A DNA stretch of 55,792 nt from a virus (Duplodnaviria; Caudoviricetes), in the IMG/VR virus record IMGVR_UViG_3300027373_000207, positions 1 through 55,792 of that record, one strand, 5' to 3'. This document shows positions 33,579-55,792 of the stretch, piece after piece; position 1 is the first letter of the stretch, and the number at the start of each line of letters is the position of its first letter. Under the pieces are notes generated by a model, which ran no database searches, was not told the DNA's origin, and worked only from the letters and a program-made list of their open reading frames with translations. Position numbers and translations under genes: made by a program.

Positions 33579-33621
33579 GATAAATATAGCGGCATAAGCC
33601 GTTGGATTGGTGATTAAAACA

Positions 33622-37406: not shown

Positions 37407-37426
37407 TGGATTAAGGAGGAAGCGTT

Positions 37427-40400: not shown

Positions 40401-40669
40401 CTATGGGCAGACGTCATGTACACAAGCTACCGTATGCCGTTACACCACCATTTGATGTTGAAAATACTGCTCATATGCTTGTAGTTGAAAAAACACAAGC
40501 TTTAATAAACAGTATTGCGGTTGCTTTGCCAGGTTCGGAGGCCATTGGGTATTGTGCTCCATCGAGCAGCACCCTTGCAGTGCGCAGACGTAAGTTCCGT
40601 CTGTTCATTCATGAATTGCCCGAGATTAGGGACTATGAAGAGGCATGTCGTGAGGTCTATAATGTCTAA
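37427..40669 (+). CDS. Type IIG-like fused endonuclease-methyltransferase
   Basis: N-terminal ID...IEYE and QVEEY nuclease-like motifs; GQEYTP, DMCCGSG, SNPPW. Confidence 0.75.
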   Translation: MVQINLHTARAFAAEATAQMRAGVPEDVLRHLLSANFPQMFPENPWWIREHSTGAEANVHYIDAAGLRRNGFIDSLVGMTAIEYERNLTVRAIYAEGYHQVEEYCSALLNQGIACDNIIGVLSDTVHWVAYRVQITRQPVPGMEYGPDNITLHEIDAVNLEDHTDDNLTRFGLFINRYLGREGSRRLSALALATDMGFDSVFCYQNINGFRDVVDAAFAGRPQYGNMIASLWQNFVSHLENNGRQPFNRNIYVNELYMITLAKLLCANILNGSVVRDEGDNLRNILNGQWFRAMGFVNLVEYDYFGWLNEAPHVNQIVTIARQMQNDLAAYDYSIIATEDLFGPLVAQLADRDRRLLLGQEYTPQWLAQKMVSHAIELLPQSDFPSFVDMCCGSGVFVVETINQTIARYHIVPDNCPTNLLRQLTNSVVGFDIDPLAVLLSKLNWAMAMRSFVPHAVADLVIPIYHADSLFTAAPITTLIEGNYEEQDLRMVFDGEQVTLPGFLITPTNRRLFDSLIHKCYETAKARARNTTEDYTRSQAEALVATLIRDAGVYIEEEQQEAIITSCYALIPTLERLQREGRNGIWPFLLGNSYRPGLVRGQFNAIVSNPPWMAMSKLADNPYKTVLVSRAERYGIKPAGSSHLHVELATVFFLNSVDKYLQENALCSIIMPDTLLNGYHHEPFRNQQFLRSDWQVHLRVNEIWDVPTDTFKNKAIVVFGQKLNSANPNPIIGRRVRSDLQDEPCEFRLLRQGRRSAWSSNPNAHDITEGVLERIPFLQGADIMPRTLVFHNAMRQPNGRWSVRPIPRQNDDLSYLVSDAKRYRDFSLNVRNMDDQFIYDCYMSNHILPFYACDAAKALLPMRKEDGRWMVVDEADLVQYGAGASTAFQSIFAESGESAHQYFDRINYRNKLNPQVFDAINDEKQIVMVGAGGGYTCACFVSFDQIDKAKTIIDQTIYWYIADSEEEALYITGMLNSMALDTIIADFQPEGAMGRRHVHKLPYAVTPPFDVENTAHMLVVEKTQALINSIAVALPGSEAIGYCAPSSSTLAVRRRKFRLFIHELPEIRDYEEACREVYNV

Positions 40670-40830
40670 CGGTTAAAAAGCTGAGGTAAATAGGTTACCT
40701 GGGTTTGACGGTAAGGATGTTCATAAGAAATGTAAAAGCCTGTGAGGGCCGGCAAAAGGGTATCTCAGCCTCGCTTCCGCATGATGATGGGCGAGATATA
40801 GAATAATCGCCATAGGTGGAGGGAACAGTT

Positions 40831-43086
40831 ATGGAAAACGCATTCCAATGGGTGCCGTTTTACGAGGCACTTGCAGACAAGCTACTTACATACAGTAACA
40901 AACGAAGCGAACTCTTCGAATTGATAAAAAAGGTCACTTCGGAGCAGCCGCTTATGAAGTATCTCCATTTTGAGCGGGAGGACTGGTGGGGACCGCGCAA
41001 CCATCAAATTGACCCGTTTTCTGTGATCGGGGTTATGAATCGTGGTACAACGGACGCGAACCGCACAGTGCTGGCAAAAGTTCTTGCTGTAACGTTTGAT
41101 ATCAAGCTTTCCGCACCCACTCAGTTTGAGGGCATTCCAGTTCTAAATAATATGAACTCATTCTTCAATGGGGTGGATGAAGTTTGGGATTTATTTCTGC
41201 TAGCCATGAAAGCCGCTGAAACTAATGATTTCACCGCCGAATTCAAGGTGGCTTTTGAAAAAGCAATTGCAGTCAACGGTAACGGGCTTGCCTATATCAC
41301 AATGGGGTTGTATTGGATACGCCCCAATATATTTATGCCGCTTGATGGTAACTCCCGCTCATATGTTTCTACTAAGTACGGGGTAACCGCTCCGAGCGGT
41401 AATTGCTCCGGGAATGAATATATAGCTTTTCTTGATACTCTCAAATCGAAAGTGGCTGAACAAACACCCGGTATTACGCTCCCTGAAATTTCCTATGCTG
41501 CTTGGACAGAAAAAAGAGATTCGACCCCAGAAAGTAGTAATGCAAATACTAAGTTAGATGGAGTTGTATCTCCGTTTAGCGCCCCCACAGGACAAACCAG
41601 CGGAAATAAAATTCCTAGAAACCTTATCCTTTTCGGAACGCCCGGCACTGGTAAGACCTATAGTTCAATGCAGTATGCTGTTGCCATCATTGAAGAGAAA
41701 CCATTAGCCGATGTGAAAGCTGAGGATTATGAAACAGTATTTGCTCGGTATCTAAAGTATAAAGAAGATGGGCTTGTTGCATTTACGACATTCCACCAGT
41801 CATTCGGATATGAGGAATTCATTGAAGGTATTCGTCCTGTTGTCTCATCGGAGGATAAAGCTGAGTCTGGGCATGAAATCGAATATGAGGTGCACGATGG
41901 AATTTTCAAGGCTTTCTGTGACAAGGCAGGAACACCTATTGGGAGCGGTGCGAGCGTCGACTTAGGGATTGGCAAGAATCCGACTGTATGGAAAGTTTCA
42001 CTTGAAGGCACAGGAGATAATCCTACTCGAACCGAGTGCTTTGCAAATAGTCACATCCGTATCGGTTATGATAGCTACGGCGAAACCCTACCAGACACTT
42101 ATGAAAAGGGTGATAATGGGAGGAATATTCTAAACGCTTTCTACTACAAAATGCAAATCGGCGATATTGTTCTGTCGTGTTACTCAAACAAAACAATAGA
42201 TGCTATCGGTGTTATCACGGGTGAGCCAGAATGGCACGATGAATATCCTCACTACAAAAGGCTTCGCAAAGTAAAATGGCTTGTAACAGGCATCAACGAA
42301 GATATCTACGAGCTTAACTCCGGAAAATTAATGATGCAGCCATCAGTGTATAAGTTGTCAATCTCCGTTTCAGACGCCCTTCAGCTAATAAAAGGACTTA
42401 AGCCGTCCCTATTAACGCAAAAGGTGAAAATCCCGAATCGTGTCTTCATAATCGATGAGATTAACAGAGGAAATATATCGAAAATATTCGGTGAACTGAT
42501 AACGCTTATTGAGCCGACGAAGCGTATTGGGGCAAGCGAGCAATTGAGAGCCTCTTTACCGTACTCAGGACAAAACTTTGGTGTGCCTGACAATGTATAT
42601 CTTATAGGTACGATGAATACCGCTGATCGTTCTATTGCTCGAATCGACGCGGCACTACGCCGCCGGTTCAATTTTGTTGAGATGCAGCCAGAATCGACGA
42701 CACTCAAGGATATTCTTGTCGATGGCATCGACATAGCCAAAATGCTCGATACCCTCAACAAGCGAATCACCGTGCTACTCGATCGTGAGCATACCATTGG
42801 TCATTCATATTTTCTACAACCACTGAAAGCTGACCCGAGCATTGACCGTCTTGCAACGATCTTTGAGAATGAGATAATTCCGCTCCTGCAGGAATACTTC
42901 TACGACGATTACGAGAAGATCCAACTTGTGTTGGGTGATAACCAGAAGCCTGATGACAGCACTCGCTTTATAGTGAAAAAGACCGATGCCGTGAAGTTAT
43001 TCGGGAATGCCGATATTGACTTTCCTGAATACTACGAGATAAACAGTTCGGCGTTCAGGGAGGTCGACGCCTATGCGTTTATCTAA
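40831..43086 (+). CDS. mcrB: McrB-family GTPase of a modification-dependent restriction system
   Basis: GTPGTGKT, FTTFHQSFGYEEF, IIDEINRGN, MNTADRS, LRRRF. Confidence 0.93.
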   Translation: MENAFQWVPFYEALADKLLTYSNKRSELFELIKKVTSEQPLMKYLHFEREDWWGPRNHQIDPFSVIGVMNRGTTDANRTVLAKVLAVTFDIKLSAPTQFEGIPVLNNMNSFFNGVDEVWDLFLLAMKAAETNDFTAEFKVAFEKAIAVNGNGLAYITMGLYWIRPNIFMPLDGNSRSYVSTKYGVTAPSGNCSGNEYIAFLDTLKSKVAEQTPGITLPEISYAAWTEKRDSTPESSNANTKLDGVVSPFSAPTGQTSGNKIPRNLILFGTPGTGKTYSSMQYAVAIIEEKPLADVKAEDYETVFARYLKYKEDGLVAFTTFHQSFGYEEFIEGIRPVVSSEDKAESGHEIEYEVHDGIFKAFCDKAGTPIGSGASVDLGIGKNPTVWKVSLEGTGDNPTRTECFANSHIRIGYDSYGETLPDTYEKGDNGRNILNAFYYKMQIGDIVLSCYSNKTIDAIGVITGEPEWHDEYPHYKRLRKVKWLVTGINEDIYELNSGKLMMQPSVYKLSISVSDALQLIKGLKPSLLTQKVKIPNRVFIIDEINRGNISKIFGELITLIEPTKRIGASEQLRASLPYSGQNFGVPDNVYLIGTMNTADRSIARIDAALRRRFNFVEMQPESTTLKDILVDGIDIAKMLDTLNKRITVLLDREHTIGHSYFLQPLKADPSIDRLATIFENEIIPLLQEYFYDDYEKIQLVLGDNQKPDDSTRFIVKKTDAVKLFGNADIDFPEYYEINSSAFREVDAYAFI

Positions 43087-44350
43087 TAAGACCTATACCA
43101 TAACTGAATACGGCGGTTTTACGCGAGGCGCATCGCTTAGTGGATATCAGAGTTTACCCGAGAGAACCTTCGATGCGCTTGAAAATTTTATACTCGCTAA
43201 TACCTCCGGCACAGAAACAGAGGCGATCGAACTACTATCCTTGTCCGCTCGCCGCGGCATTGGTAAAATTATCACTGCTCGCAACTATGTCGGGCTGATA
43301 ACGATGACAGATGGGACAGTTATAGAGATATTGCCGAAGATAGCGGGCGGCGACCTTTCCGAGGGTGATACGAAGCGGATTTTTCTTGAGATGCTAAAAA
43401 CGCTGAAAGATGTGACATTCAAGGACTTTAACGTTTCGCACTTGCATGCCGACAAATTGAGTCTCCTTGAAATATTCATCAAGATGTTTCTCGATGAGGT
43501 GTCTGTTCTGACTAAGCAAGGGTTGAAAGCTGCATATATGCCTGTTGAGGCTAACGAACGGTTCTACAAAGGGAAACTGCTAGCTTCGCAGAACATTAAG
43601 CACAATCTGATGAACTATGAGCGATTCTTTGTTCGCTACGACGATTTCAGCTTTAACCGACCCGAAAATCGCCTGATTAAGTCCACGCTCCGCTTCCTGT
43701 TGAAACAGACTGCAGATAGCCGCAACCGTCAAAACGCCGCCCGATTGCTCGCATTTTTTGTAAGTGTGGATTTTTCAGAAAGCTACGAAGCTGACTTTTC
43801 AAAGTGCATTAGCGACCGCAGCATGAGCCACTACGACAAAGCGCTTTCGTGGTGCCGCGTTTTCCTCCGGGGCAACAGTTTTACTGCCTTTGCCGGAAGT
43901 GAGGTTGCTCTGGCGCTTCTATTCCCGATGGAAAAAGTTTTCGAGAGTTTTGTTGCAGCCAAGTTTCGCAAGCACCTTGTGAGTGGTATCAGCCTTCGGA
44001 CGCAAGACACCAGATATAGTCTATTTGATAGCCCGACCCGTGCCTTTGCCCTTAGACCAGACCTTGTTTTAGAATCTGGCGAACGTACGGTCGTTTTGGA
44101 CACAAAGTGGAAACTGCTCTCTGATAATGCAAGGAACAACGGGATTTCGCAATCCGATATGTACCAGATGTACGCTTACAGCAAGAAGTATGATGCAAAA
44201 GGGATAGTCCTACTGTATCCGCATTCCGATGCTGTAAGTAAAACAGACATAAGGTATGTATCTGACGACAGCGTCAATGTCCGAGTTTCGTTTGTTGATC
44301 TTAGAAATATGGACGGTAGTATTTCTAAGTTGTTATCGGAGGTGTGCTAA
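43073..44350 (+). CDS. mcrC: McrC-family nuclease subunit
   Basis: IEILPK, LFPMEKVFE, RPD...LDTKWK, DMYQMYAY. Confidence 0.92.
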   Translation: MRLSNKTYTITEYGGFTRGASLSGYQSLPERTFDALENFILANTSGTETEAIELLSLSARRGIGKIITARNYVGLITMTDGTVIEILPKIAGGDLSEGDTKRIFLEMLKTLKDVTFKDFNVSHLHADKLSLLEIFIKMFLDEVSVLTKQGLKAAYMPVEANERFYKGKLLASQNIKHNLMNYERFFVRYDDFSFNRPENRLIKSTLRFLLKQTADSRNRQNAARLLAFFVSVDFSESYEADFSKCISDRSMSHYDKALSWCRVFLRGNSFTAFAGSEVALALLFPMEKVFESFVAAKFRKHLVSGISLRTQDTRYSLFDSPTRAFALRPDLVLESGERTVVLDTKWKLLSDNARNNGISQSDMYQMYAYSKKYDAKGIVLLYPHSDAVSKTDIRYVSDDSVNVRVSFVDLRNMDGSISKLLSEVC

Positions 44351-45360
44351 TGCCCTTTACCATAGTCCGGCAGGACCTCATGAAAATGAAGGTTGACGCA
44401 ATCGTCAATGCTGCAAACACCAAGCTCCAGATGGGTGGCGGCATTTGCGAGGCCATATTTAAGGCAGCGGGAGCGTCCGAACTGCAAGCCGCCTGTAAAA
44501 AACTCGCGCCTATTAAAACAGGTGACGCGATCATTACTTCGGGGTTCGGGCTACCCGCCAAGTTTGTTGTCCACGCAGCTGGACCAGTTTATCGTGGCGG
44601 CAAGAACGGTGAGGAAGAGCAACTGCGCCTTTGCTACCTAAACAGCCTGAAAAGAGCAGTGGAGAACAAGTGTAAAAGCATAGCATTTCCACTAATTTCA
44701 AGCGGCATTTATGGTTACCCGAAAGACGAAGCCCTACGTGTCGCCACGACAGCGATTCAGGATTTCCTCATAGAACACGAATTGGAAGTGTATCTCGCCG
44801 TATTCGACAAGGAAGCGTTCGCTGTCAGCGAGAAGTTACTTGGCGAAATCGAGAGTTATATTGATGAGCATTACTTCGTAGAACACAAGTATAATCGGCG
44901 TGAGTTGCTTGATGTCGAGCGTGAAGTCCTTGAGGAAGCCGACCTTATCAGCAATAATATGCCGTCACCCATGCAAGAACCGATTGTCGGCGCAGGTATT
45001 GACGAGCTGGTAGGCAGACTGGACGAGCCATTCTCGGAGACACTCTTGCGGTTGATTGACGCTAAGGGCAAGACAGACGTGGAAATCTACAAACGTGCCA
45101 ACCTTGACCGAAAGTTGTTTTCCAAAATCAGAACTGGTAAAGGTTATACACCAAGCAAGCGTACTGCCATTGCCCTTGCAGTGGCGTTGGAGTTGTCGCT
45201 CGATGAAACGGATGACCTTTTAGAACGGGCTGGATATGCTCTGTCCCACAGCCAGATGTTCGATGTTATTGTAGAATACTTCATTGTCAGCGGGAAGTAC
45301 GACGTTTTTGAGATTAACGAGGTGCTGTTCAAATACGACCAACCGTTGTTGGGAGGGTGA
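44350..45360 (+). CDS. Macro domain (ADP-ribose binding/hydrolase) fused to a C-terminal HTH
   Basis: DAIVNAAN..L..GGG, VHAAGP, SIAFPLISSGIYGYP; C-terminal YKRANLDRKLFSKIR HTH. Confidence 0.9.
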   Translation: MPFTIVRQDLMKMKVDAIVNAANTKLQMGGGICEAIFKAAGASELQAACKKLAPIKTGDAIITSGFGLPAKFVVHAAGPVYRGGKNGEEEQLRLCYLNSLKRAVENKCKSIAFPLISSGIYGYPKDEALRVATTAIQDFLIEHELEVYLAVFDKEAFAVSEKLLGEIESYIDEHYFVEHKYNRRELLDVEREVLEEADLISNNMPSPMQEPIVGAGIDELVGRLDEPFSETLLRLIDAKGKTDVEIYKRANLDRKLFSKIRTGKGYTPSKRTAIALAVALELSLDETDDLLERAGYALSHSQMFDVIVEYFIVSGKYDVFEINEVLFKYDQPLLGG

Positions 45361-46085
45361 GCATGCAAAATAGGTATGCCGGAGACGTTGGGGATTTTGG
45401 GAAAATTGGTTTGCTTAGGCAAATCAAAAGGTCAGAACTTGGCATCGGCGTAAATTGGTATTTGGCGCCAGATGAGAACCATAATGCCGATGGTAAACAT
45501 ATCGGATACATAACAGACACGCGATATAATGGATGTGATGACTCGCTGAGAAATTCACTAAAAGAAATAGTCAATGGTCAACGTAGCGTTTCTGCTTTGG
45601 AAACTATGAATCTTATCCCAAGCGCTGTTTATTATCACGAAGTGCTTCATTCACCCTTGCGGACTTTCTCCCGCAGGGATTGGCATAATAAAGCATTAGA
45701 AGTGCTTAGATATGCGGACATTGTTTTTCTCGACCCTGATAATGGTTTGCTAGTAAAAAGCGTATCTGCCGGGTACGCAAAAAGTAATAAATATGTGATC
45801 CCGAGCGAGATTGCCGACTATTTTGCCGCCGGAAAAAGCGTAATCATCTACAACCACCGCTGCCGAGAGCAAGAATCTGTCTATTTGCAGCGTTTTGAAT
45901 GGATGCATGAAGATTCAATCCTAAAGAATGCAGTTATCACTGGCGTGACGTTTAAGCGAGGTACAGTTCGAGACTACATATTTGCATTGCAACCAAGCCA
46001 TGCTGCAAGAATTATGGAATGCGTAGATAATATGCTCCAAAGCCCATGGAGAGACCACTTCGTAAAACTTAACATATCCCTCTGA
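45357..46085 (+). CDS. Uncharacterised protein, possibly RlmJ-like SAM-MTase fold
   Basis: RYAGDVGDFGK N-terminus and DIVFLDPDNG motif. Confidence 0.5.
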   Translation: MSMQNRYAGDVGDFGKIGLLRQIKRSELGIGVNWYLAPDENHNADGKHIGYITDTRYNGCDDSLRNSLKEIVNGQRSVSALETMNLIPSAVYYHEVLHSPLRTFSRRDWHNKALEVLRYADIVFLDPDNGLLVKSVSAGYAKSNKYVIPSEIADYFAAGKSVIIYNHRCREQESVYLQRFEWMHEDSILKNAVITGVTFKRGTVRDYIFALQPSHAARIMECVDNMLQSPWRDHFVKLNISL

Positions 46086-46088
46086 TAT

Positions 46089-46105
46089 GTCGCTTGAAAA
46101 GCGAC
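46089..46105. promoter_or_regulatory. Palindrome GTCGC-N7-GCGAC upstream of the vWA gene
   Basis: Perfect 5-bp arms upstream of a TGTTATCCT extended -10-like box. Confidence 0.45.
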
Positions 46106-46159
46106 CGGCTGCCCTGCCGAAATTGTTATCCTTAAGTCACAATAAAACTTAAGGAGGAA

Positions 46160-46819
46160 ATGGCAATGAAAAAAGGATTAACTGAATTGGTATTTATATT
46201 GGACAAAAGCGGCTCGATGGGTGGCTTGGAAACTGACACTATAGGTGGTTACAACTCAATGCTTGCCAAACAACAGACGGTTGAGGGTGAATGCCATATC
46301 ACTACCGTGTTGTTTGATAACAACCACGAGCTGCTCCACGACCGCATCGATATCAAGGCAGTCAGCCCAATTACCGAAAAGGAGTACCAGGTCGGCGGTT
46401 CAACCGCGCTCCTTGATGCCATCGGTAGGACAATCCATAAAATCGGTAATGCCCAGAAGCATACCGCCAACGATTATCAAGCCGAAAAGGTAATGTTTGT
46501 TATCATTACAGATGGAGAAGAGAATTCCAGTCGCGAATATTCGGCCGAGAAGGTCAAGGCGCAGATCGAGCGGCAAAAGAAAAATTATGGGTGGGAGTTT
46601 ATCTTTCTCGGCGCAAACATCGACGCGGTTGAGACGGCGGGTCGGTTCGGCATTTCCGCAGACCGTGCCCAGAACTACCACGCAGACAGTGAAGGTGTTG
46701 AACTGAATTTCCGTGTAATGAGTGAAGCGGTTGCAACATTCCGCGAATGCGCCTCAATGCCGGAGGGCTGGAGTGACGATATTCAAAAGGACTACAAGCG
46801 CCGAGGTGGTCGTAAATAA
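46160..46819 (+). CDS. von Willebrand factor A domain protein
   Basis: MIDAS DKSGS, TALLDAIG, ITDGEEN. Confidence 0.9.
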   Translation: MAMKKGLTELVFILDKSGSMGGLETDTIGGYNSMLAKQQTVEGECHITTVLFDNNHELLHDRIDIKAVSPITEKEYQVGGSTALLDAIGRTIHKIGNAQKHTANDYQAEKVMFVIITDGEENSSREYSAEKVKAQIERQKKNYGWEFIFLGANIDAVETAGRFGISADRAQNYHADSEGVELNFRVMSEAVATFRECASMPEGWSDDIQKDYKRRGGRK

Positions 46820-46902
46820 TGCTTGGAGCAATCATCGGCGACATCGTAGGCTCTGTCTACGAGTGGCATAATATTAATTCAATTTATGAATTTAAAGGAT
46901 AG
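46819..46902 (+). pseudogene. Truncated ADP-ribosylglycohydrolase (ARH/DraG) N-terminus
   Basis: MLGAIIGDIVGSVYEWHNI; TAATG-coupled to vWA; breaks where AT-rich DNA begins. Confidence 0.8.
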
Positions 46903-47556
46903 GTGCTGATGATGGGTAAGAAAGAAAAAGAACTCGTTAGTATTATCACAAAAAATGGGATTTTCAAAACAAGCGATATGCTAATTCCGGCGTTTATGGA
47001 CAAACTTTTATTTGGAAGCCTAAAAGAAGAAATATTAGATGTCTACAGAAAGCTTGGCGGCATGGAAGGAGAATGTGCTTTCAGGGGGAAATGGGATATC
47101 GTTACTGAAAAATGTATAATTGAATTAGATGAGCAACTGCATTTTAATGATTATAGATTAACTACTTTGGAATCGCCTTTATATGATGCAATTAGAACAT
47201 TTCCACTGGAAACATATAGAGACTATTGCAGGAGATATAAAGATAATTGTTTGAAAGCTGGTTCTTTCGGCGGAAAATGGACTAATGACAGTTGCGAGAA
47301 GATGTTTGGACCTGCTCAAAAAAACGGTGATTTGGCCGGAAATGGCAGTCCAAGATGGAAACAAAGAGCTTTTTATGACTTTTTCAAGGATATGTCTTAT
47401 CTAGTAACAAATATTCCGATTGTGAGACTCTCTATTTATGACGTGATAGATTATCGTGGGCGAAAATATGCACTGGGGGATTTGCTTGAAAGTGATTACA
47501 CAATAAGCGAAGATGCTGCTGTTGGAATTCAGGAGCTTATTAATAAGCGTATATAA
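46903..47556 (+). CDS. Putative Vsr-like / PD-(D/E)xK nuclease (DUF7255-like)
   Basis: WD...IELDEQLHF and QRAFYD..KD motifs. Confidence 0.55.
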   Translation: MLMMGKKEKELVSIITKNGIFKTSDMLIPAFMDKLLFGSLKEEILDVYRKLGGMEGECAFRGKWDIVTEKCIIELDEQLHFNDYRLTTLESPLYDAIRTFPLETYRDYCRRYKDNCLKAGSFGGKWTNDSCEKMFGPAQKNGDLAGNGSPRWKQRAFYDFFKDMSYLVTNIPIVRLSIYDVIDYRGRKYALGDLLESDYTISEDAAVGIQELINKRI

Positions 47557-47710
47557 TTACAGTAAGAAACATTTCAAATTATATGTTGATATTTTTCCTT
47601 GCATGGATAATACCCATAAATAGCTTAGCAATTATGCTAAATGAAAAGATGGATTCATGTTAATGGGAGATTAAGCTGGTCAATTTGAATTTAAAAGGAG
47701 ATGTTAACAA

Positions 47711-47926
47711 ATGGGGCGTTACAATGTAGAATTTAAAGCATTTAAAACAGGAGAGTGGTACACTAAAACGTCAACCGATAACATTGGAAGTGCATACTCT
47801 GTGGCAGATTGTAACAGCTATGGACGAGCATATAGAGTGACGGATACAGATACAGGTAGTATTTTAAAAGAAGCAGACGAAGATGCAGGAATGAAAGAAT
47901 ATATGACGGATCCAAAAAAAATTTAA
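47711..47926 (+). CDS. Small hypothetical protein
   Basis: AAAGGAG RBS; 71-aa ORF. Confidence 0.55.
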   Translation: MGRYNVEFKAFKTGEWYTKTSTDNIGSAYSVADCNSYGRAYRVTDTDTGSILKEADEDAGMKEYMTDPKKI

Positions 47927-48032
47927 GAGTCAGAATAAAATTATATTCACATATTATAAATCAAAATGTCGATTTATTGTTGTGATTATAAGCATCCCAT
48001 AATATAACAAATCTAAATTTTGGAGGTGACTT

Positions 48033-48134
48033 ATGGAAGGTAATAAAAGAATACATTTTCTTACTCCAAAGCCTCCGAAAAGAGAAAAGAAGGTTGAAAT
48101 CTATTGTCGTGTCAGTTCGAACAGTGCAGATTAG
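48033..48134 (+). pseudogene. Serine recombinase N-terminal relic
   Basis: GGAGGTG RBS; MEGNKRIHFLTPKPPKREKKVEIYCRVSSNSAD*, with TAG where the usual Q falls. Confidence 0.75.
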
Positions 48135-48264
48135 CTGAAAAATTGAAAGATTAGTGAAAGCAATAGCTTATTTCAAATACATATATACTTGATTTAAGTG
48201 AATGCTACCGAAGGACCGCTTTGTTGCGATACTCACAGGTTGTTTTTTGGGAGGAAGAGGATAA

Positions 48265-49458
48265 ATGTTTGAAGAGCTAAAAGAAACAGCAAAGATTTCA
48301 TATGATAATAAGGATTATGAAAAGGCTCTTGAATTATATGAAGAGCTAAAAAATCTTGATGAAGATAAATTTGAGAAGCAGTGCATATTTGCATATATGT
48401 GGTGTTTATTTCGAGTTAAAATTAACTCAGAAGAAGCATTCAATGATAATAATGTAAATGAAACCAGGTTAATCGTTAAATATATATTGGATCATCAGAG
48501 TAATAAAGACTTGCTCTTCCAGTTAACTGTTTTCAGGGTTCTAAAAGATTTTGAAAGAAGACAAAATTTTGATGCAAAAAAGGTTAATCTCTGGGTAGAT
48601 AAGCTCGATCCCAGTTCTCTATCTGAAGATACCCATACCTCAGAATATGATGGAAAGCAAGTTGAGTTTATGTCAAATAAGGAAAAGTGGTATACACTGA
48701 AAAGTAAATCATGTGAAAAGCTTGAAATATATGACGAATGCATACGTATCTCAAAGGAAGCACTTGATAGTATCAATAATCTACATAACAATAATGATAT
48801 TTGGTTTAAAAGAAGGATTGCCATCTCGATGGCAAAACTGGGGCAGCAAGATGAAGCAATAAATACTATAGGGGACATTCTCAAAATAAAGAAAGATTGG
48901 TTTTTATATCAAGATATGGGGGATATTTATTTAGCACAAAGTAATTACAAAGTTGCTTTAGAGAATTACTTAAATGCGATATTGGCTCCTGGCGACGATA
49001 ACATGAAGATAAAATTATTCTGGCAAACGGGGAATGCTCTTATAAATTTAGGTGATGCAGAAGGAGAGACTTTATTAAAGTCTTATTCGATAAAGATAAG
49101 AACTGAGCATGAATGGAAGCTTAACGCAGAAGAAAAGGATTTTTCTATACGATGCAAAGAATATATTGAGTCAAGTGAGGCTAGAGTGTTAAAAAGAAAA
49201 ATAAACGAGCTAGCCCAAAAATACAAATGGCAAGATTCTATAAAGCTGGAAGGTACTATATCAAAAATTTTACCCGATGGTAAGGCAGGATTTATTCGAA
49301 CAAGTGATAGTTCTTTCTATTTTAGGATGAATCAAATCAGAAGTCGTGGTGTAAATGCTCAGATTGGTTCAAAGGTAAGTTTCTATCTAGAAAAAGGGTT
49401 TGACAAGAAGAAAGGGTTAGAAACCGATAATGCAGTTAATATAAGTTTTCTTGAGTAG
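48265..49458 (+). CDS. TPR-repeat protein with a C-terminal cold-shock (OB) domain
   Basis: Helical TPR-like repeats; C-terminal GTI..I...GKAGFI...SFYF...G.KVSF...D.KK....NAVNI. Confidence 0.75.
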   Translation: MFEELKETAKISYDNKDYEKALELYEELKNLDEDKFEKQCIFAYMWCLFRVKINSEEAFNDNNVNETRLIVKYILDHQSNKDLLFQLTVFRVLKDFERRQNFDAKKVNLWVDKLDPSSLSEDTHTSEYDGKQVEFMSNKEKWYTLKSKSCEKLEIYDECIRISKEALDSINNLHNNNDIWFKRRIAISMAKLGQQDEAINTIGDILKIKKDWFLYQDMGDIYLAQSNYKVALENYLNAILAPGDDNMKIKLFWQTGNALINLGDAEGETLLKSYSIKIRTEHEWKLNAEEKDFSIRCKEYIESSEARVLKRKINELAQKYKWQDSIKLEGTISKILPDGKAGFIRTSDSSFYFRMNQIRSRGVNAQIGSKVSFYLEKGFDKKKGLETDNAVNISFLE

Positions 49459-49466
49459 GTGCGCAT

Positions 49467-50897
49467 ATGTTAAGTTTGAAAAACATACCTATTGATTTTA
49501 ACACAGTAGCAGAAAAGTTGGATAATTTTTCTAATGCTAAAGGTCTTACCATGGTAATAGAGACAAAAAATGGGTTTGTCGAGCTTAAGTTTTATAGCAG
49601 TATGCCCCCAGGTTTGTTAAGACTGTATAATACAAAAAAAGGCCTTACGATTGATGGTAGCACTGGTAAAAATCCAGACCTTAATAAGGAATTAATGGAA
49701 TTTATCAATGAAATAATTGCGGTTAAAAAAAATGATGAGCAAAGAATAACTTTCAAAAATGTTTCAAAGGATGATTTTGAAGGAATTATAAAGCGAATCA
49801 GTCTTTTTTCTGATGGAGAAAGGTCATATCAGATAGAGGACAAGGCAGTGAAAAATACACTCGAAGAAAAGCACTTGATTATAAAAGATATTAAATCAAA
49901 AGAAGAACTGAATCTCAAGTATTACACGAATGGGACGTTATATATATATGGATTTATGTGGGACCTTGGTGAAGAAATCGCCAACATTGCTCATAAGGTC
50001 TTGGGAAGGCAGAGACAAACACATGTCGATTATTTAAATGAAATTATCCATGCTTGCAATGAAAAATATATAACTTTCAATGTTGAAGAATGTATAGAGT
50101 GCGATAATCCATGCAATGGAAACTGTAGCAGTTTCTTACAAGACATCCATTACGGAGAAAAGAAAAGATATTCATGTGAAAAAGTAATTAACTATTATCT
50201 GCCCAAATATGCATACAGATATGCTTTTGAGATAGAACAGTTACTTAAGTTACATATTGATCAAATCAGAAACTTTGATAGTCTTAATATATTGTCAATA
50301 GGGTGTGGGCCTTGTACGGAACTGCTGGGAATAACAAATCTAAGTAGTATGATTAAGAAGCCTATCTCATACAACGGTATTGATCTAAATGAAAAATGGG
50401 AAAAAGTTCATTCGATAATTAAAGAGAAGTTATCGAAAAGAGTTACATTAAAATACCATTACAAAGATATTTTTGATTTTCTTAGTAGCATTACTCCGAT
50501 GAAAAAAGTGATTCAATCAAATATACTTATTTTTCAATATGTAATTTCCGATATTATAAAGTATAAATCTACTGAGGAAGTGCACTCTTTTATGCAGAGC
50601 CTATTTGGTGAGGTGGTTGAGTATTTGCCGAAGAATGCAATAATTATATTTAATGATATAAACCACAAGCAGAAAGCACGAGATACTTTTGATTTCTTTG
50701 CATCGTTGCTACCAGAGAATAAATATAAAATCCATAAATATTACTTTAAAGGAAAGACAGAAGAAGAATATTTTATTTACGGAGAAGAGATAAAAGAAAC
50801 CGAAGTCCCATATTGGATTCCAGATTACATAGAAAACAAATACAATCCCTGGTGTATTTGTAAAAGTGCGGCTTTGGTAATTGGAAAGGTAGAATAG
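49467..50897 (+). CDS. RnlA-like N-terminal domains fused to a class I SAM-methyltransferase-like domain
   Basis: LKNIPID...LRLYNTKKGLTIDGSTGKNPDLNKEL (RnlA-NTD-like, from memory); ILSIGCGP, GID, FQYVISD. Confidence 0.6.
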   Translation: MLSLKNIPIDFNTVAEKLDNFSNAKGLTMVIETKNGFVELKFYSSMPPGLLRLYNTKKGLTIDGSTGKNPDLNKELMEFINEIIAVKKNDEQRITFKNVSKDDFEGIIKRISLFSDGERSYQIEDKAVKNTLEEKHLIIKDIKSKEELNLKYYTNGTLYIYGFMWDLGEEIANIAHKVLGRQRQTHVDYLNEIIHACNEKYITFNVEECIECDNPCNGNCSSFLQDIHYGEKKRYSCEKVINYYLPKYAYRYAFEIEQLLKLHIDQIRNFDSLNILSIGCGPCTELLGITNLSSMIKKPISYNGIDLNEKWEKVHSIIKEKLSKRVTLKYHYKDIFDFLSSITPMKKVIQSNILIFQYVISDIIKYKSTEEVHSFMQSLFGEVVEYLPKNAIIIFNDINHKQKARDTFDFFASLLPENKYKIHKYYFKGKTEEEYFIYGEEIKETEVPYWIPDYIENKYNPWCICKSAALVIGKVE

Positions 50898-50898
50898 A

Positions 50899-51837
50899 AT
50901 GATATTGAGTGTTAGCAGAAGAACAGATATACCGGCATTTTATTCGGATTGGTTTATTAAACGACTGAAAGAAGGCTACGTTTGTGTTAGAAATCCTATG
51001 TATCCAAAACAGGTGAGTCGAATAGAATTGAATCCAGATACAGTAGATTGCATCGTATTTTGGACCAAAAATCCAAAAGCGATGCTGTCAAAACTCGATG
51101 CTCTGAGTGAATATGAATTCTATTTTCAATATACGCTTAATCCTTATGGTAAAGATATTGAGACTAATTTGCCTTTAATTGAAGATAGAATCCAGACATT
51201 TATTGATTTATCTGAACAAATAGGCAAGGAACGTGTCATATGGAGATATGATCCTATATTAATTACTAACGAAATTGGACTGCAGTATCATATCGAAATG
51301 TTCGATAAAATAGCAAGTGCATTAAAAAACCATACAACTTCAGTAGTTATAAGTATCCTGGACAATTACCGGAAAATAAGAAAAAGAATGAAAGCAATAA
51401 ATAGTCTCGACATTACTCCATCAGAGATAGAACAAATAGCAGTTACCTTCAAAAAATTATCATATATTTATGGATTAAGGATTTCAAGTTGTGCAGAGGA
51501 TATAGACTTAAGACCCTTCGGCATCAATCCGGGTAAGTGCATTGACGATCAATTAATATCAAAATTATTAGGGCAGGAGATTACAATTCCAAAAGACAAG
51601 AACCAAAGAGGGGTATGTAGTTGTGTTGAAAGTATAGAGGTTGGGATGTATAATACATGCTTACATAACTGCAAATATTGTTATGCTAATTATGATGAAG
51701 AAACTGTGGCAGAACGATATCATCAGCACGATGTTAATTCACCATTTCTATACGGGAATGCTTCCAGTGACGATAAAATAACTGAAAGAAAATTTAAAAT
51801 TTATAAATCAGAAACTAGCCAAATGACTCTCTTCTGA
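50899..51837 (+). CDS. DUF1848 family (radical-SAM/SPL-like Fe-S) protein
   Basis: MILSVSRRTDIPAFY, FWTKNP, WRYDPI, CID, YNTCLHNCKYCYAN. Confidence 0.88.
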   Translation: MILSVSRRTDIPAFYSDWFIKRLKEGYVCVRNPMYPKQVSRIELNPDTVDCIVFWTKNPKAMLSKLDALSEYEFYFQYTLNPYGKDIETNLPLIEDRIQTFIDLSEQIGKERVIWRYDPILITNEIGLQYHIEMFDKIASALKNHTTSVVISILDNYRKIRKRMKAINSLDITPSEIEQIAVTFKKLSYIYGLRISSCAEDIDLRPFGINPGKCIDDQLISKLLGQEITIPKDKNQRGVCSCVESIEVGMYNTCLHNCKYCYANYDEETVAERYHQHDVNSPFLYGNASSDDKITERKFKIYKSETSQMTLF

Positions 51838-51850
51838 TAATTCATGAATG

Positions 51851-52095
51851 TAGACATCAATATGAACGGTTTGAGCCATTTTACATATGGAAAAACATCC
51901 ATATTGACCACTCGAGATATTGTATGAAATATTCCCTTGAACGGGCATATTTAGTTGACATATTCCCGCGAACGTGCAAAGTATGTAAAACAGCGTTGAC
52001 GTATTTCCTTCGACGGATATATGCTAAACTACAGTCTAGACATCAAAATGAACGGTTCGTTCCATGTGGAGACGTGCGTACTTTTGTCCCACAAG
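51851..52095 (+). repeat. Cluster of degenerate attachment half-sites resembling the rlmD/rumA 3' end
   Basis: 29-bp direct repeat at 51851/52037; three ~25-bp copies at 51923, 51954 (VDIFPRT) and 51995 (VDVFPST); HVETCVLLSHK coded at 52063. Confidence 0.7.
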
Positions 52096-53711
52096 AAATC
52101 ACAAGCATCTTCACCGTCTTTATAAACAGGGAAATTAAACAAAATAGACTTTAGGGGCAGCTCAGCCTCGTCACATGGAAAAATCTCTATTTCTTTGATT
52201 AACGAAGATATTAGGGATTTTTTCTCTTCATCGCTGATTTTGTCGTACACCTTGTCGAAGTTTGCTAACAGGGTATAGATGTTTTCCAAAGTAATTGCAT
52301 CCTGCTCTACGGCTTTGCGGCGCAGCAGAACATCTTCAATTTTCTCTTCAAGCTCTACGATAATGTCATATAGTCCATCAAGCCTGAGGGTCATATCATG
52401 GATTTTACGCTCTCTGAAACGAGTATCCTCAGGCAGGCTGTCGATTTCATTTTCAAGCCGAGTTTTATTCAATTCTGTCTCTTTTAGTTTGGATTCGTAA
52501 TTTTTCAGCTCCCTGTTCAAGGTGGAGGTATCAATTTCTTTCCCAATCCTTGATTTAATTTCTCCTGCAAAATCCTGATTTTGAATCAGCTCTCGGATCG
52601 CTTCAATGACTAACGGCTCGATGTCGGTTTTCTTGAGCATGGTTGTATACTCGCAGGTTTTTCCTCTGGCTGCACGAGCTTTGCTGCACACATAATAATA
52701 AACCTCTTTATAGGTACCATCTTTGTTCGTCCATGCGTGCTTGTTGGTATACATTGGGCCACCGCATTTAGGACACTTTAAAATACCGCTTAACAAATGC
52801 GCTCTGTCCCGACCTATTTTGGAAGGTGACTTAACGCCTGTCAGCTCTCTTCTTTCATGTGCAGCATTCCACAGCTCTTCGCTTATAATTGCTTCATGTT
52901 GACCTTCGGCTATGATGTAATCTTCCTGCGGGACTTGCTTATATTCATTCTTACTCCCTTTTACTTTTTCACGGACACGCCTGCCATAAGAGATTTTGCC
53001 GCAGTATACAGGATTATCAATAATCATCCTGATAAAATGTGTTCCCCAGAGTGAAAGGGTGCCGTTATTTCGCTGTACTTTCTGAATACCTTGCAGGTTG
53101 AGGTAATTGGCGATTTTATGAAATCCCATATTTCCATTCAGATATTTATCAAAGATAATGCGTACAGCTTCAGCCTCATCTTCTTGAATAAAAAGCTGTT
53201 TGTCTTTGAGGAAGTAACCGTAAGGAGCAAAACCACCGTTCCAGCCGCCCTGACGAGCTTTTTCCTTTCGTCCGTTCATTGTCTGCTCGATGATATTTTC
53301 ACGCTCTATTTCAGCAACGGCAGATAGAACGGAAATCAAAAGCTTTCCGCTTGTTTGCGATGAATCAATGCCTTCCTCAATACAGATTAAATTCACGCCA
53401 AAAGCTTGAATATGCTCCAAGGAGTTCAGAATATCAGCTGCATTTCTGCCAAAGCGAGACAGCTTGTACACCAATATATAATCAATCTCTAAACCATTTT
53501 CAATATCAAGCAGCATTTGCTTAAAGGCAGGTCTGCCCTCGATGGATTTACCGGATTTACCGGCATCTTCGTAGATGTTTACAATCTCCATTTCTTCTCT
53601 ATCAGCAAAACGCCTTAAGTTGCTTTTCTGCCCATCCAAGCTGAAACCATCTACTTGCATTTCAGTGCTGACACGGGGATAAAGCACACATTTTTTTCCA
53701 CTCCTATTCAT
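52029..53711 (-). CDS. Large serine recombinase (integrase)
   Basis: YPRVST catalytic Ser, KLSRFGR, recombinase domain, CPKC...C zinc ribbon, coiled coil. Confidence 0.95.
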   Translation of the reverse strand: MNRSGKKCVLYPRVSTEMQVDGFSLDGQKSNLRRFADREEMEIVNIYEDAGKSGKSIEGRPAFKQMLLDIENGLEIDYILVYKLSRFGRNAADILNSLEHIQAFGVNLICIEEGIDSSQTSGKLLISVLSAVAEIERENIIEQTMNGRKEKARQGGWNGGFAPYGYFLKDKQLFIQEDEAEAVRIIFDKYLNGNMGFHKIANYLNLQGIQKVQRNNGTLSLWGTHFIRMIIDNPVYCGKISYGRRVREKVKGSKNEYKQVPQEDYIIAEGQHEAIISEELWNAAHERRELTGVKSPSKIGRDRAHLLSGILKCPKCGGPMYTNKHAWTNKDGTYKEVYYYVCSKARAARGKTCEYTTMLKKTDIEPLVIEAIRELIQNQDFAGEIKSRIGKEIDTSTLNRELKNYESKLKETELNKTRLENEIDSLPEDTRFRERKIHDMTLRLDGLYDIIVELEEKIEDVLLRRKAVEQDAITLENIYTLLANFDKVYDKISDEEKKSLISSLIKEIEIFPCDEAELPLKSILFNFPVYKDGEDACDFLWDKSTHVSTWNEPFILMSRL

Positions 53712-53764
53712 AATCATACCTCCAATATAATATTGGAAAATATCTATATCTCAAATACAGCCAT

Positions 53765-53932
53765 TTACTCAACACGGTTTATTTCATCCAGCACATCGGC
53801 ACCATGCTTTTCTATAATCTGCGAAAGCACCTTTATAAAATCCTGAAATGATTTTGATGTCCTTGCTGCATACAGTTCTTGAGGCAGGGCAACTTCGACC
53901 GTGGTTTCGGGTAAGCTTTTGATATTTTCCAT
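53765..53932 (-). CDS. 55-aa protein upstream of the recombinase (possible directionality factor; missing from the ORF track)
   Basis: MENIKSLPETT...FIKVLSQIIEKHGADVLDEINRVE*; GGAGGTG RBS. Confidence 0.65.
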   Translation of the reverse strand: MENIKSLPETTVEVALPQELYAARTSKSFQDFIKVLSQIIEKHGADVLDEINRVE

Positions 53933-54069
53933 TTACAATCACCTCCAAGTGAGGTGCTTATTTTGATTATAAGCACTTATTATCTTTTTGAGAAGTTTGT
54001 CGCTTCAGCAATAGAAGCACACCACAAATTGCACTGTGTAGAAATATGGTGTGCCTTGTCTTTATGTTC

Positions 54070-54404
54070 ATGTGCCTTATTTGCCACGCACCCCGGCAAG
54101 GGGGATATTTTGAGCTGTCATTGGCTTGACATCATAGCCCCGCAATACTGATCAGCCTTGTCCCTTCAAGAGGCCGCAAATATCGCAGGAACTCCCCCTC
54201 AAGTCTGTGGGAGGTCGTGAGAAAGTATCATTATTCCTGATGTGTGTCGTCGCATCAACCGTGCCAATGGTTGGTCTAATGGCTGCATTTATCGCTCCGA
54301 CTGTGCAATGCACTGTCATCATGGCGCTGCCCATTATGTCGCTTTGCCTTTCAGCCACATAGGATTTGTACTCAAAATACCGTATATTTAATTGTCAAAG
54401 AACA
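54070..54404 (-). ncRNA. Candidate long structured RNA/leader with a boxA-like 5' end
   Basis: TGTTCTTTGACAA; long-range helix 54331-54340/54128-54137; internal hairpins; no convincing ORF. Confidence 0.55.
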
Positions 54405-54792
54405 AAAAATCATATGACGCTAAACTCGTCTTACTAATCAGGACAAAAAACGGGTGAAAGTAAGGGGTGTAAAAGAAACTTTTTAAAAATATTTAAAAAA
54501 TTTCTGTTCAGGGGATTGTGTAGCGGACGAATATTTAGGCACAACAAAAAACACCTGCAACTCTTGGAAAAAATGCAAGTACTTAAGGTGCTGGAATTTA
54601 TCTCAAACATGAATTAAATCGTATCGATGAGCTATTTCAAGGCAAACAAGCGTTGATTTTGCTCTCGATTTTCATATAAATATTTCATAATTTTGCTGGC
54701 ACGAATGTAGTATCGCCAATAAAATGTTACTTATTGTATGTTGACTCATTGTATTCAAAGTATTAAAATAAATGTTGAGGTGAATATGCGTT

Positions 54793-55020
54793 ATGGATAT
54801 TGTGAAAGTCTTTGCAAGTAATGTAAAAAAATATAGAAATAGAATAGGCATATCTCAGGAATCTTTTGCAGAGAAAGCTGGACTGCATAGAACGTATATT
54901 AGTGCCTTGGAATGCGAGAAGAGAAGTATTTCACTAGATAATGTACAAAAAATTGCGGATGCTTTAGGTGTAGAAACATATTTGTTATTTATTGAAGATA
55001 ATAAAGATAATAAGGGATAA
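54793..55020 (+). CDS. XRE-family HTH regulator (C-protein-like)
   Basis: GISQESFAEKAGLHRTYISALE...ISL.N..KIA.AL. Confidence 0.9.
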   Translation: MDIVKVFASNVKKYRNRIGISQESFAEKAGLHRTYISALECEKRSISLDNVQKIADALGVETYLLFIEDNKDNKG

Positions 55021-55039
55021 TTTGAAAGGGGGTGCATGC

Positions 55040-55792
55040 ATGAATCGGACACATTATTATAATTATATAGAAACAAAGCTTGGGGAACTTGCATATCGTA
55101 TAAATATTCGTGGAAAAATAAACATACTTGATTTGAATATTCACTCTGAAACATTTTTTGCCGATTTATGCAACGTGCTATTAAACCTCCATTTGACTAA
55201 TATAAATGAGCTTAGACAAAATGTTGAAAGTATAGATCTTTTGGATGATGAAAACAAAGTTATTGTTCAAGTATCTGCGACATGTACGAAGCAAAAGATT
55301 GAAGACTCTTTAAGCAAAGAGATTCTAGCTTCTTATTCAGGGTACAGGTATAAATTTATTGCTATTTCGAAAGATGCTTCAACACTAAGGGGAACAAGCT
55401 TTAAAAATCCATACAATATATTATTTGAGCCAGCAACTGATATTATTGATAATGCTTCAATACTCCGGTCTATCATCAATAAAGAAATTGTAAAACAGAA
55501 AGAAATTTATGAATTAGTCAAGAATGAACTAGGAAATGAAATTGATATAGTTAAAGTCGATACCAATTTAGCTACCATTATTAATATTTTGGCTGCTGAG
55601 AACTTATCTGAGAATATTGATTCGCCTGAAATAAACGTGTTCGAAATTGATAAGAAGATAGAGTTTAATGATTTGACTGGTGTTAAGTGTACTATTGACG
55701 ACTATAAAATTTACTATCATAAAATTGATGAGAAGTACTCGGAATTTGATAAAGAAGGATCTAACAAGAGTTTTTCGGTTTGTTTATTGTAA
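55040..55792 (+). CDS. SMEK-domain protein (ABC-three-component / Lamassu-associated effector-like); possibly truncated
   Basis: LDLNIHSETFF, SIDLLD, IVQVSAT..KQKIE motifs. Confidence 0.65.
   Translation: MNRTHYYNYIETKLGELAYRINIRGKINILDLNIHSETFFADLCNVLLNLHLTNINELRQNVESIDLLDDENKVIVQVSATCTKQKIEDSLSKEILASYSGYRYKFIAISKDASTLRGTSFKNPYNILFEPATDIIDNASILRSIINKEIVKQKEIYELVKNELGNEIDIVKVDTNLATIINILAAENLSENIDSPEINVFEIDKKIEFNDLTGVKCTIDDYKIYYHKIDEKYSEFDKEGSNKSFSVCLL

Follow-up and report, generated by a model that had tools for sequence, protein, structure and literature searches.

Near the right-hand end of a 55,792-nt contig of virus DNA (IMG/VR record IMGVR_UViG_3300027373_000207, analysed over its full length and hereafter called the window), a row of short repeats forms the terminus of a prophage and meets the gene of a large serine recombinase that we designate LSR-Y. 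The row occupies 51850-52068 on the plus strand. It runs directly into the hexanucleotide GAGACG (52069-52074), a crossover region common to the two elements that meet here and the point at which homology breaks in relatives, and this core is followed by the right arm (P' arm, 52075-52125) of the element to which LSR-Y belongs. The LSR-Y gene lies on the minus strand at 52029-53717, encodes Resolvase, Recombinase and Zn_ribbon_recom domains by Pfam scan and is the integrase of the right-hand element; the core falls within its 3' end. An initial annotation had read the repeats as imitations of the 3' end of rlmD (rumA), had placed the junction of two elements here, and had explained the row as scars of repeated integration and excision or as spare or decoy landing sites. 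The record is the window only, and rlmD itself is not in it.

The row consists of six units on the same strand, three of which copy the rlmD codons VDxFPxT and three of which resemble the left arm of a phage attachment site (P-type arms). From left to right these are P-a (51850-51879), a P-type copy identical to 52037-52065 at 25 of 29 positions and followed by non-core sequence; P-b (51892-51920), a degenerate P-type arm (AACATCCAT...CTCGAG) with the internal spacing of the P-arm consensus; B-2 (51923-51947), a degenerate rlmD-arm mimic with three mismatches to a 20-nt pattern; B-3 (51954-51978), a mimic reading VDIFPRT that matches the degenerate rlmD pattern exactly; B-4 (51995-52019), reading VDVFPST and matching a looser pattern exactly; and P-c (52036-52068), the functional-type P arm of the left-hand prophage (GACATCAAA...CATGTG). 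The last of these begins GACATCAA..., and the recombinase open reading frame (ORF) takes its final 12 codons and its stop from the minus strand of this arm. The starts of the six units are 41, 32, 31, 41 and 41 nt apart. The sequence GAGACGTGCGTAC occurs a single time in the window, and the units stop before CAYGTNGAGACG. A seventh, isolated rlmD-like unit, missing from the initial annotation, matches the loose pattern at 47585-47608 (plus strand) and reads VDIFPCM; compared by eye, its spacer is similar to the one that accompanies the middle array unit of two relatives (G017 and L004).

A repeat search of the window recovered all the repeats that had been described, and both translations were confirmed. 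The 29-nt pair 51851-51879 and 52037-52065 is 86% identical (25/29), with a third, weaker copy at 51892-51920 (62%), and a family of about 23 nt comprises 51925-51947, 51956-51978 and 51997-52019, with 83% and 70% identity to the reference copy. The frame that runs through 52063 reads LDIKMNGSF-HVETCVLLSHKKSQASSPSL and a stop; it lies on the strand opposite the recombinase 3' end and overlaps ORF 52029-53717. The degenerate rlmD pattern TNGAYNTNTTYCCNNNNAC is matched exactly at two places in the window that lie 41 nt from each other, where 0.02 would be expected, and none of 100 shuffles reached two. The repeats are real, exceed chance and imitate the rlmD 3' end as had been proposed. Looser counts were not significant: with at most one mismatch there were three matches against 1.0 expected (7 of 100 shuffles reached three), and with at most two mismatches three against 1.26 (13 of 100). 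The third loose match is the copy at 47585.

The target of LSR-Y was examined by scanning species genomes for its relatives, which gave 80 loci, 38 of them forming one group at 87% identity or more; 37 of the 38 are informative and the other lacks the 3' end of the gene. In 23 of the 37, the left neighbour of the LSR-Y gene is a long ORF ending ...VDMFPxTxHVE, which passes into an element-encoded ..CVLLSHK.. tail. The remaining left neighbours are a 'P-type' arm that is not rlmD (9/37), a convergent recombinase ORF running into the core (4/37), and a truncated rlmD arm beside another recombinase (1/37). Two of the ORFs ending in VDMFPxTxHVE scored 435 and 529 bits against TIGR00479 (RlmD; cut-off 183.55), bearing out the identification of this motif as the RlmD C-terminus. 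In one relative (G002), the LSR-Y element is an integrative and conjugative element (ICE) of about 59 kb whose left and right attachment sites (attL and attR) have a 23-bp common block and whose displaced native tail reads HVETCVLLENTLK and a stop. A search of all loci for attR within 6 kb of the recombinase found none, and this ICE alone gave a clean attR. Judged by these comparisons, the LSR-Y family targets the 3' end of rlmD at the GAGACG core, and its P' arm provides a replacement RlmD tail (..CVLLSHKKSQASSPSL and a stop). Dyad symmetry did not pin down the exact central dinucleotide of the core. The relatives at 70-76% identity have no HVE motif at their 3' end. Among NCBIfam models the best matches of LSR-Y are CcrB, CcrC and CcrA, each below its own cut-off. 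The 3' end of rumA/rlmD is a recognized hotspot for serine-recombinase ICEs and prophages in Firmicutes, composites included, according to the accessible parts of two studies (PMC11578063, PMC7168690), and the hotspot claimed for this locus holds for the family of the neighbouring recombinase as well.

Two side observations concern the recombinase gene itself. Its C-terminal tail varies with the junction partner, the last codons being encoded by the sequence left of the core: the window protein ends ..WNEPFILMSRL, that of G002 ends ..CLVLGNISTGVRGPA by way of the rlmD arm, and the L004 recombinase reads through the array for about 50 more residues. On the minus strand at 52050-52062, just past the conserved end of the recombinase, the P arm contains a small palindrome (GAACGAACCGTTC) with a terminator-like score.

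The two sides of the core have separate histories. To the right, a locus in another genome (L092) matches 52039-55792 at 99% by BLAST, and the 420 nt from 52069 rightwards are 100% identical; to the left of its core, the P arm is only 53% identical to that of the window and the flank beyond is unrelated. The left side of the window is the right terminus of a prophage, and its homology to a syntenic relative of that phage (G013, the record of L198) reaches 52074. Since these right and left homologies overlap in GAGACG (52069-52074) only, the crossover is placed there. Over 15 junctions, identity of the P arm shows no correlation with identity on the recombinase side (rho = 0.11, p = 0.27). The uncorrelated histories, the alternative joints described below and the 99%-identical copy with another left flank are together grounds for rejecting the idea that the window contains an intact attP with LSR-Y as the phage's own integrase.

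Contigs from public sequencing runs display the same joint with different partners. One run contains the whole stretch, seventeen contain 0.49 of the sampled words and four contain 0.26-0.40; contigs were compared from four of these 22 listed runs, and they report presence, not cell proportions. At 52062-52063, the sequences to the left of the right-hand element diverge and are of four kinds: native rlmD arms (..GTAGATATGTTCCCGCAGACAGGG in X1 record 2, and another in X10), the window's array (X1 record 1), an L092-type arm (X15), and another sequence (X2). Within X1, which may be the source sample, contig depths are 23 on the array side, 11.6 on the rlmD side and 41.1 in the element. In what may be the source-sample run, one contig begins at 52069 and another joins an rlmD arm to the same P' arm. 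This supplies the comparison of empty and filled sites that the initial annotation had called for, the right-hand element being seen either at native rlmD arms or at the array. As read from these homologies and joints, 52069-52074 is the tandem junction between the prophage terminus and a separate LSR-Y element at the rlmD hotspot, as had been suspected. The contig joints fit insertion of the phage beside rlmD, ahead of an LSR-Y element already resident there, although the order of arrival is our inference.

The array belongs to the phage terminus and is inherited with it. G013 shares with the window the replication module (82%), the Macro gene (71%), the VWA gene (80%) and the array from 51954 to 52074 (88%), a block that contains B-3 and B-4; the unit corresponding to B-2 is the first unit in G013, and its P arm is identical to P-c. 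There, the array and P arm join GAGACG and then HVETVVLMSRKDK and a stop, the native rlmD tail, which makes a simple attR; beyond the tail, a hairpin (found by eye) is followed by one minus-strand ORF. Between the window and G013, about half of the spacer between B-3 and B-4 has changed, while the units have changed at degenerate positions only. A scan of viral contigs with the P-arm pattern gave 58 loci, 52 of the rlmD type and six at an unrelated gene. Three of the 52 run into an LSR-Y P' arm; the other 49 run into other sequences that start with HVET, mostly short rlmD tails (HVETVVLMSRVEDK and a stop, for example) and some longer open tails.

Combining the viral loci with the window and the genome examples gave 53 distinct termini, in which units were counted within 200 nt. 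Forty-four have at least one unit and 40 at least two, the numbers with none, one, two, three and four units being 9, 4, 20, 18 and 2. At the 41 loci with full flanks, upstream matches to the motif number 88 on the plus strand and 9 on the minus strand, and downstream matches 4 and 27, respectively. Positions beyond the search pattern are conserved among 102 unit copies from 48 distinct termini (T at -2 in 80, A at +15 in 88, C at +16 in 83), and the spacers are not. The extended consensus of the unit, ..GAAC GGAT.., goes beyond the rlmD-coding pattern. A CCCAYAAA similarity noted by eye raised the idea that the spacers might be deleted P' arms.

The spacing of the units follows the helical repeat of DNA. 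Start-to-start distances, with the GAC of the P arm included, cluster at 20-21, 30-31, 40-43, 50-53, 59-63, 71, 93 and 104. Over all spacings R = 0.66 (n = 106); when each of 32 clusters was represented by one terminus, leaving 48 spacings, R rose to 0.69 at T = 10.25-10.5 bp, the best period in a scan from 6 to 20, and none of 20,000 uniform nulls reached that value. Some termini also contain inverted units downstream of the core. Ten matches fall at +130 to +134 and eight at +115 to +119, three of the latter at +119 within the LSR-Y gene. Loci of the attL type (L215, L218 and L223) have inverted units at +131 to +133, and G006 has an inverted rlmD-arm copy about +131 past its core, as computed from positions.

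We consider it probable that the array is the attP/attR flank of a group of rlmD-integrating temperate phages, and that its attB-arm mimics are putative accessory binding sites. The units imitate the outer part of the left arm of the host attB (rlmD codons V-D-M-F-P-x-T) and are set on one strand at whole numbers of helical turns ahead of the P arm. In the window, the prophage terminus is joined, within GAGACG, to the P' arm of the LSR-Y element instead of the displaced rlmD tail. This junction most likely arose when the phage integrated at the attL formed by rlmD and LSR-Y, since the P' arm there resembles the tail of rlmD. A natural candidate for the binder is whichever domain reads the same motif in the rlmD attB arm, which would be that of the phage's own serine recombinases, and the units may be accessory sites at which these recombinases or a partner protein build or regulate a higher-order attP/attR complex. 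A pair of phage-type serine recombinases lies upstream of the array in G006, G008, G009 and G021; no conserved attachment motifs were seen directly downstream of the phage-type recombinase genes.

More tentatively, the attachment site may be complex in a stricter sense, with a row of attB half-site mimics on one face of the helix and inverted copies about 130 bp away on the P' side recruiting extra recombinase or a directionality factor. This is a possibility that we would not put ahead of its negation. If true, it would be the first 'arm-type' accessory architecture among large serine recombinases, and as a by-product the row of units might help to keep elements specific for rlmD together in tandem, in stacks with many defence genes.

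Several observations weigh against accessory sites. Nine of the 53 termini contain no units, nor do the six 'group 2' P arms that adjoin LSR-Y (6/15 junctions), so at least some relatives can do without them. The prophage of the window has no intact integrase of its own. What is left is a 33-codon relic of a serine-recombinase N-terminus (..VEIYCRVSS..) in the ORF list at 48033-48134 on the plus strand, and because the prophage's own recombinase is a relic only, the array may be out of use at this locus. The position that corresponds, in a real attB arm, to the outer end of the units is about 27-30 bp from GAGACG, and the half-site of an A118-type (LI) integrase, at 25 bp, is shorter than this reach; serine integrases are also described, in the part of that paper available to us, as acting at simple attP and attB sites of 40-50 bp without any need for auxiliary DNA (PMC3783163). 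Because related arrays have a common ancestry, the phasing samples are not fully independent even with one terminus taken per cluster. Lastly, no attR was found within 100 kb of the LSR-Y gene in G001, G003 and G004.

In the attP and attB sites of phage serine integrases (A118/LI, phiC31, Bxb1), one motif occurs in both the P and the B arms but at different distances from the core, and the same holds here, GAYAT standing 27 nt from GAGACG in the B arm and 30 nt in the P arm. For the LI integrase, the accessible text gives a shift of 5 bp for the motif common to its P and B arms (PMC3783163). Unlike such simple sites, the termini described here add one to four arm-like units about 60-190 bp from the core, and inverted units about 130 bp away on the opposite side. 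Sites II and III of resolvase res sites are accessory sites of another site-specific recombination system, as the accessible part of one study describes (PMC2475636). Arrays of repeats likewise surround crossover sites elsewhere, on both arms: res sites II and III and the arm sites of lambda are multiple, phased, protein-binding repeats, but in our array binding is only inferred. The attP of lambda, with its Xis arrays, has arm-type sites flanking the crossover. To our knowledge, accessory or arm-type sites are not known for large serine recombinases.

At rlmH (orfX), the composite islands of the staphylococcal cassette chromosome (SCCmec) type are marked at each element boundary by repeated integration-site sequences. 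Large serine recombinases, the 3' end of an rRNA methyltransferase gene, restoration of that gene end and newcomers that stack beside the gene are all features in common with the present locus. The SCC repeats, however, hold a crossover core and mark boundaries, whereas the array units are core-less, lie 30-40 bp apart and are inherited as a block. Among the closest known systems are the elements of the rumA/rlmD hotspot, which agree with ours in target gene, recombinase class and tandem ICE/prophage arrangement; the portions of those papers available to us give insertion sites and element-delimiting direct repeats, and describe no phased row of attB mimics in a phage terminus (PMC11578063, PMC7168690). 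Nor was any description of such an array found in the accessible parts of the literature on accessory sites of large serine recombinases or on rumA attachment structure. The hotspot and the stacking are known biology, and a phased row of attB-arm mimics within a phage attachment region appears to be a new variation.

Should the units prove to bind recombinase, the sites of serine integrases would not in every case be 'simple', with a bearing on the control of direction and of partner choice, on the assembly and movement of tandem islands, and on integrases as tools. ICEs and prophages with serine recombinases, bearing genes for resistance and defence, are known to land at the 3' end of rlmD/rumA; the crossover core GAGACG is now fixed for two widespread element families, and the same element found at rlmD or at a prophage end within one sample is a live-looking polymorphism.

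An alternative to accessory binding sites is that the row is a functionless duplication, an ancestral terminus having copied a piece of the attB arm that then drifted neutrally, with phasing explained by shared ancestry. The extended consensus does suggest a single ancestral unit, B-2 and P-b have decayed, and the termini without units would be expected. We nevertheless consider neutral duplication unlikely: motif positions are conserved while spacers diverge (as in the spacer between B-3 and B-4 when the window is compared with G013), many different spacings across 32 clusters are all multiples of about 10.4 bp, and an inverted unit recurs at a fixed distance on the other arm.

The second explanation in the initial annotation was that the units are spare or decoy landing sites, attB-arm mimics that draw in rlmD-specific recombinases so that defence islands accrete at the phage end. 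Several features make this attractive, among them the LSR-Y elements that adjoin arrays in the window, L092, G009, G010, both G005 copies, L019 and L045, and the variation of array-adjacent cargo among relatives. A block of about 5 kb (~46.8-51.9 kb), lying directly upstream of the array, is also absent from G013 and bracketed by the 47585 unit and P-a. Every joint that we saw, however, lies at a canonical GAGACG core and none at a unit; neither a right half-site nor a core can be recognised in the units; LSR-Y lies equally beside P arms that lack units (6/15 junctions); and the left end of the 5-kb block (~46.8 kb) shows neither a P' arm nor a core. Landing sites are on this evidence quite improbable.

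Local scars, in which each repeat would be the remnant of a separate element that had integrated here and then been excised or decayed, are in our view very unlikely. Stacking does occur at this hotspot. Fourteen of the 37 informative LSR-Y loci are not directly beside rlmD; in G006, 63 kb and five further serine-recombinase ORFs, one of them partial, stand between rlmD and LSR-Y; upstream of the L124 array stand two relic cores, GTTGAGACG; and the window has its two extra P-type arms (51850-51920), the 47585 unit and the 48033 relic. Against this, the VDxFPxT units have no crossover core and just 17-20 nt between them, conservative serine recombination leaves no scars, and helical phasing would not be expected of them. 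The units B-2, B-3, B-4 and P-c, 31-41 nt apart, have no genes between them and do not delimit modules; only the 47585 unit and P-a bracket one. Because the same units in the same order and spacing are found in G013 at a simple attR, and units recur in 44 of the 53 termini, B-2 to B-4 are not local scars, and that part of the earlier interpretation is largely refuted, while rlmD mimicry, the hotspot and the junction stand. The P-type copies at 51850-51920, the 47585 unit, the 48033 relic and the ~5-kb block may be the remains of earlier elements or of other termini. Readings of the repeats as promoters or structured RNA can be set aside, with two promoter-like sites where 2.2 would be expected, nothing in Rfam matching at an E value below 0.98, and a fold z-score of -0.55 that 56 of 200 shuffles equalled.

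The relic at 48033-48134 has its best blastp-short match in a G006 recombinase (57% over 14 residues, E = 9e-4, a weak match), and recombinases of its type occur upstream of such arrays in related proviruses. BLAST of the window against a phage collection returned distant integrase matches only, the Streptococcus 'rum' phages among them.

Other loci show how varied the stacks can be. A contig of G005 (C44, L085/L086) has, at about 52.6-64.9 kb, two copies of array plus LSR-Y that are 94-96% identical and inverted, their recombinase genes about 9 kb apart; rlmD itself is on another contig, and homology between the copies begins 152 nt before CAT, about where the outermost unit was placed by the scan (-139 to -149). 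The 63-kb stack of G006 (L087-L090; flipped coordinates 1450-67700), between an upstream rlmD on the same strand and LSR-Y, contains restriction-modification genes, a prophage, the serine-recombinase ORFs mentioned above and nucleotidyltransferase genes. In L124 (G010), the relic cores lie about 160-190 nt upstream of its own core, and the adjacent LSR-Y gene is cut down to its last ~150 codons in two frames. The viral contig L225 has only the last ~55 codons of rlmD with unrelated sequence before them, a sign that elements of another class may insert about 170 bp ahead of the rlmD stop codon. In L012, L017, L018 and L033, the same core is entered by other serine recombinase genes, which lie on the strand of rlmD, and in L032 one runs into the middle of the VDMFP motif; because of these arrangements, the rlmD 3' end seems to have more than one crossover point and to accept elements in both gene orientations.

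The remainder of the window is phage and cargo. No terminal repeat was found in the 55,792-nt record, and a circular record was rejected on that ground. Pfam scans place phage structural and replication genes on the minus strand at 19-33248. An 18-kb plus-strand block (33607-51837) at the right end of the prophage is cargo with defence-type domains. Its first part (33607-47556) encodes three large methyltransferase-type genes of the N6/Eco57I type, McrBC (an McrB-like AAA protein with McrC), Macro, VWA and DUF7255; the second (48265-51837), which follows the lone 47585 unit and the 48033 relic, encodes TPR/DUF7017, RnlA-like and DUF1848 proteins. Synteny of the cargo is partial, the McrBC-Macro-VWA part also being present in G005 and the Macro-VWA part in G013. 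On the LSR-Y element itself, a helix-turn-helix (HTH) gene (54793-55020) and a SMEK/CTD10 gene of the ABC-3C type (54992-55792, broken off at the contig end) lie on the plus strand by Pfam scan, and a 67%-similar copy occurs in the distal part of the G002 ICE.

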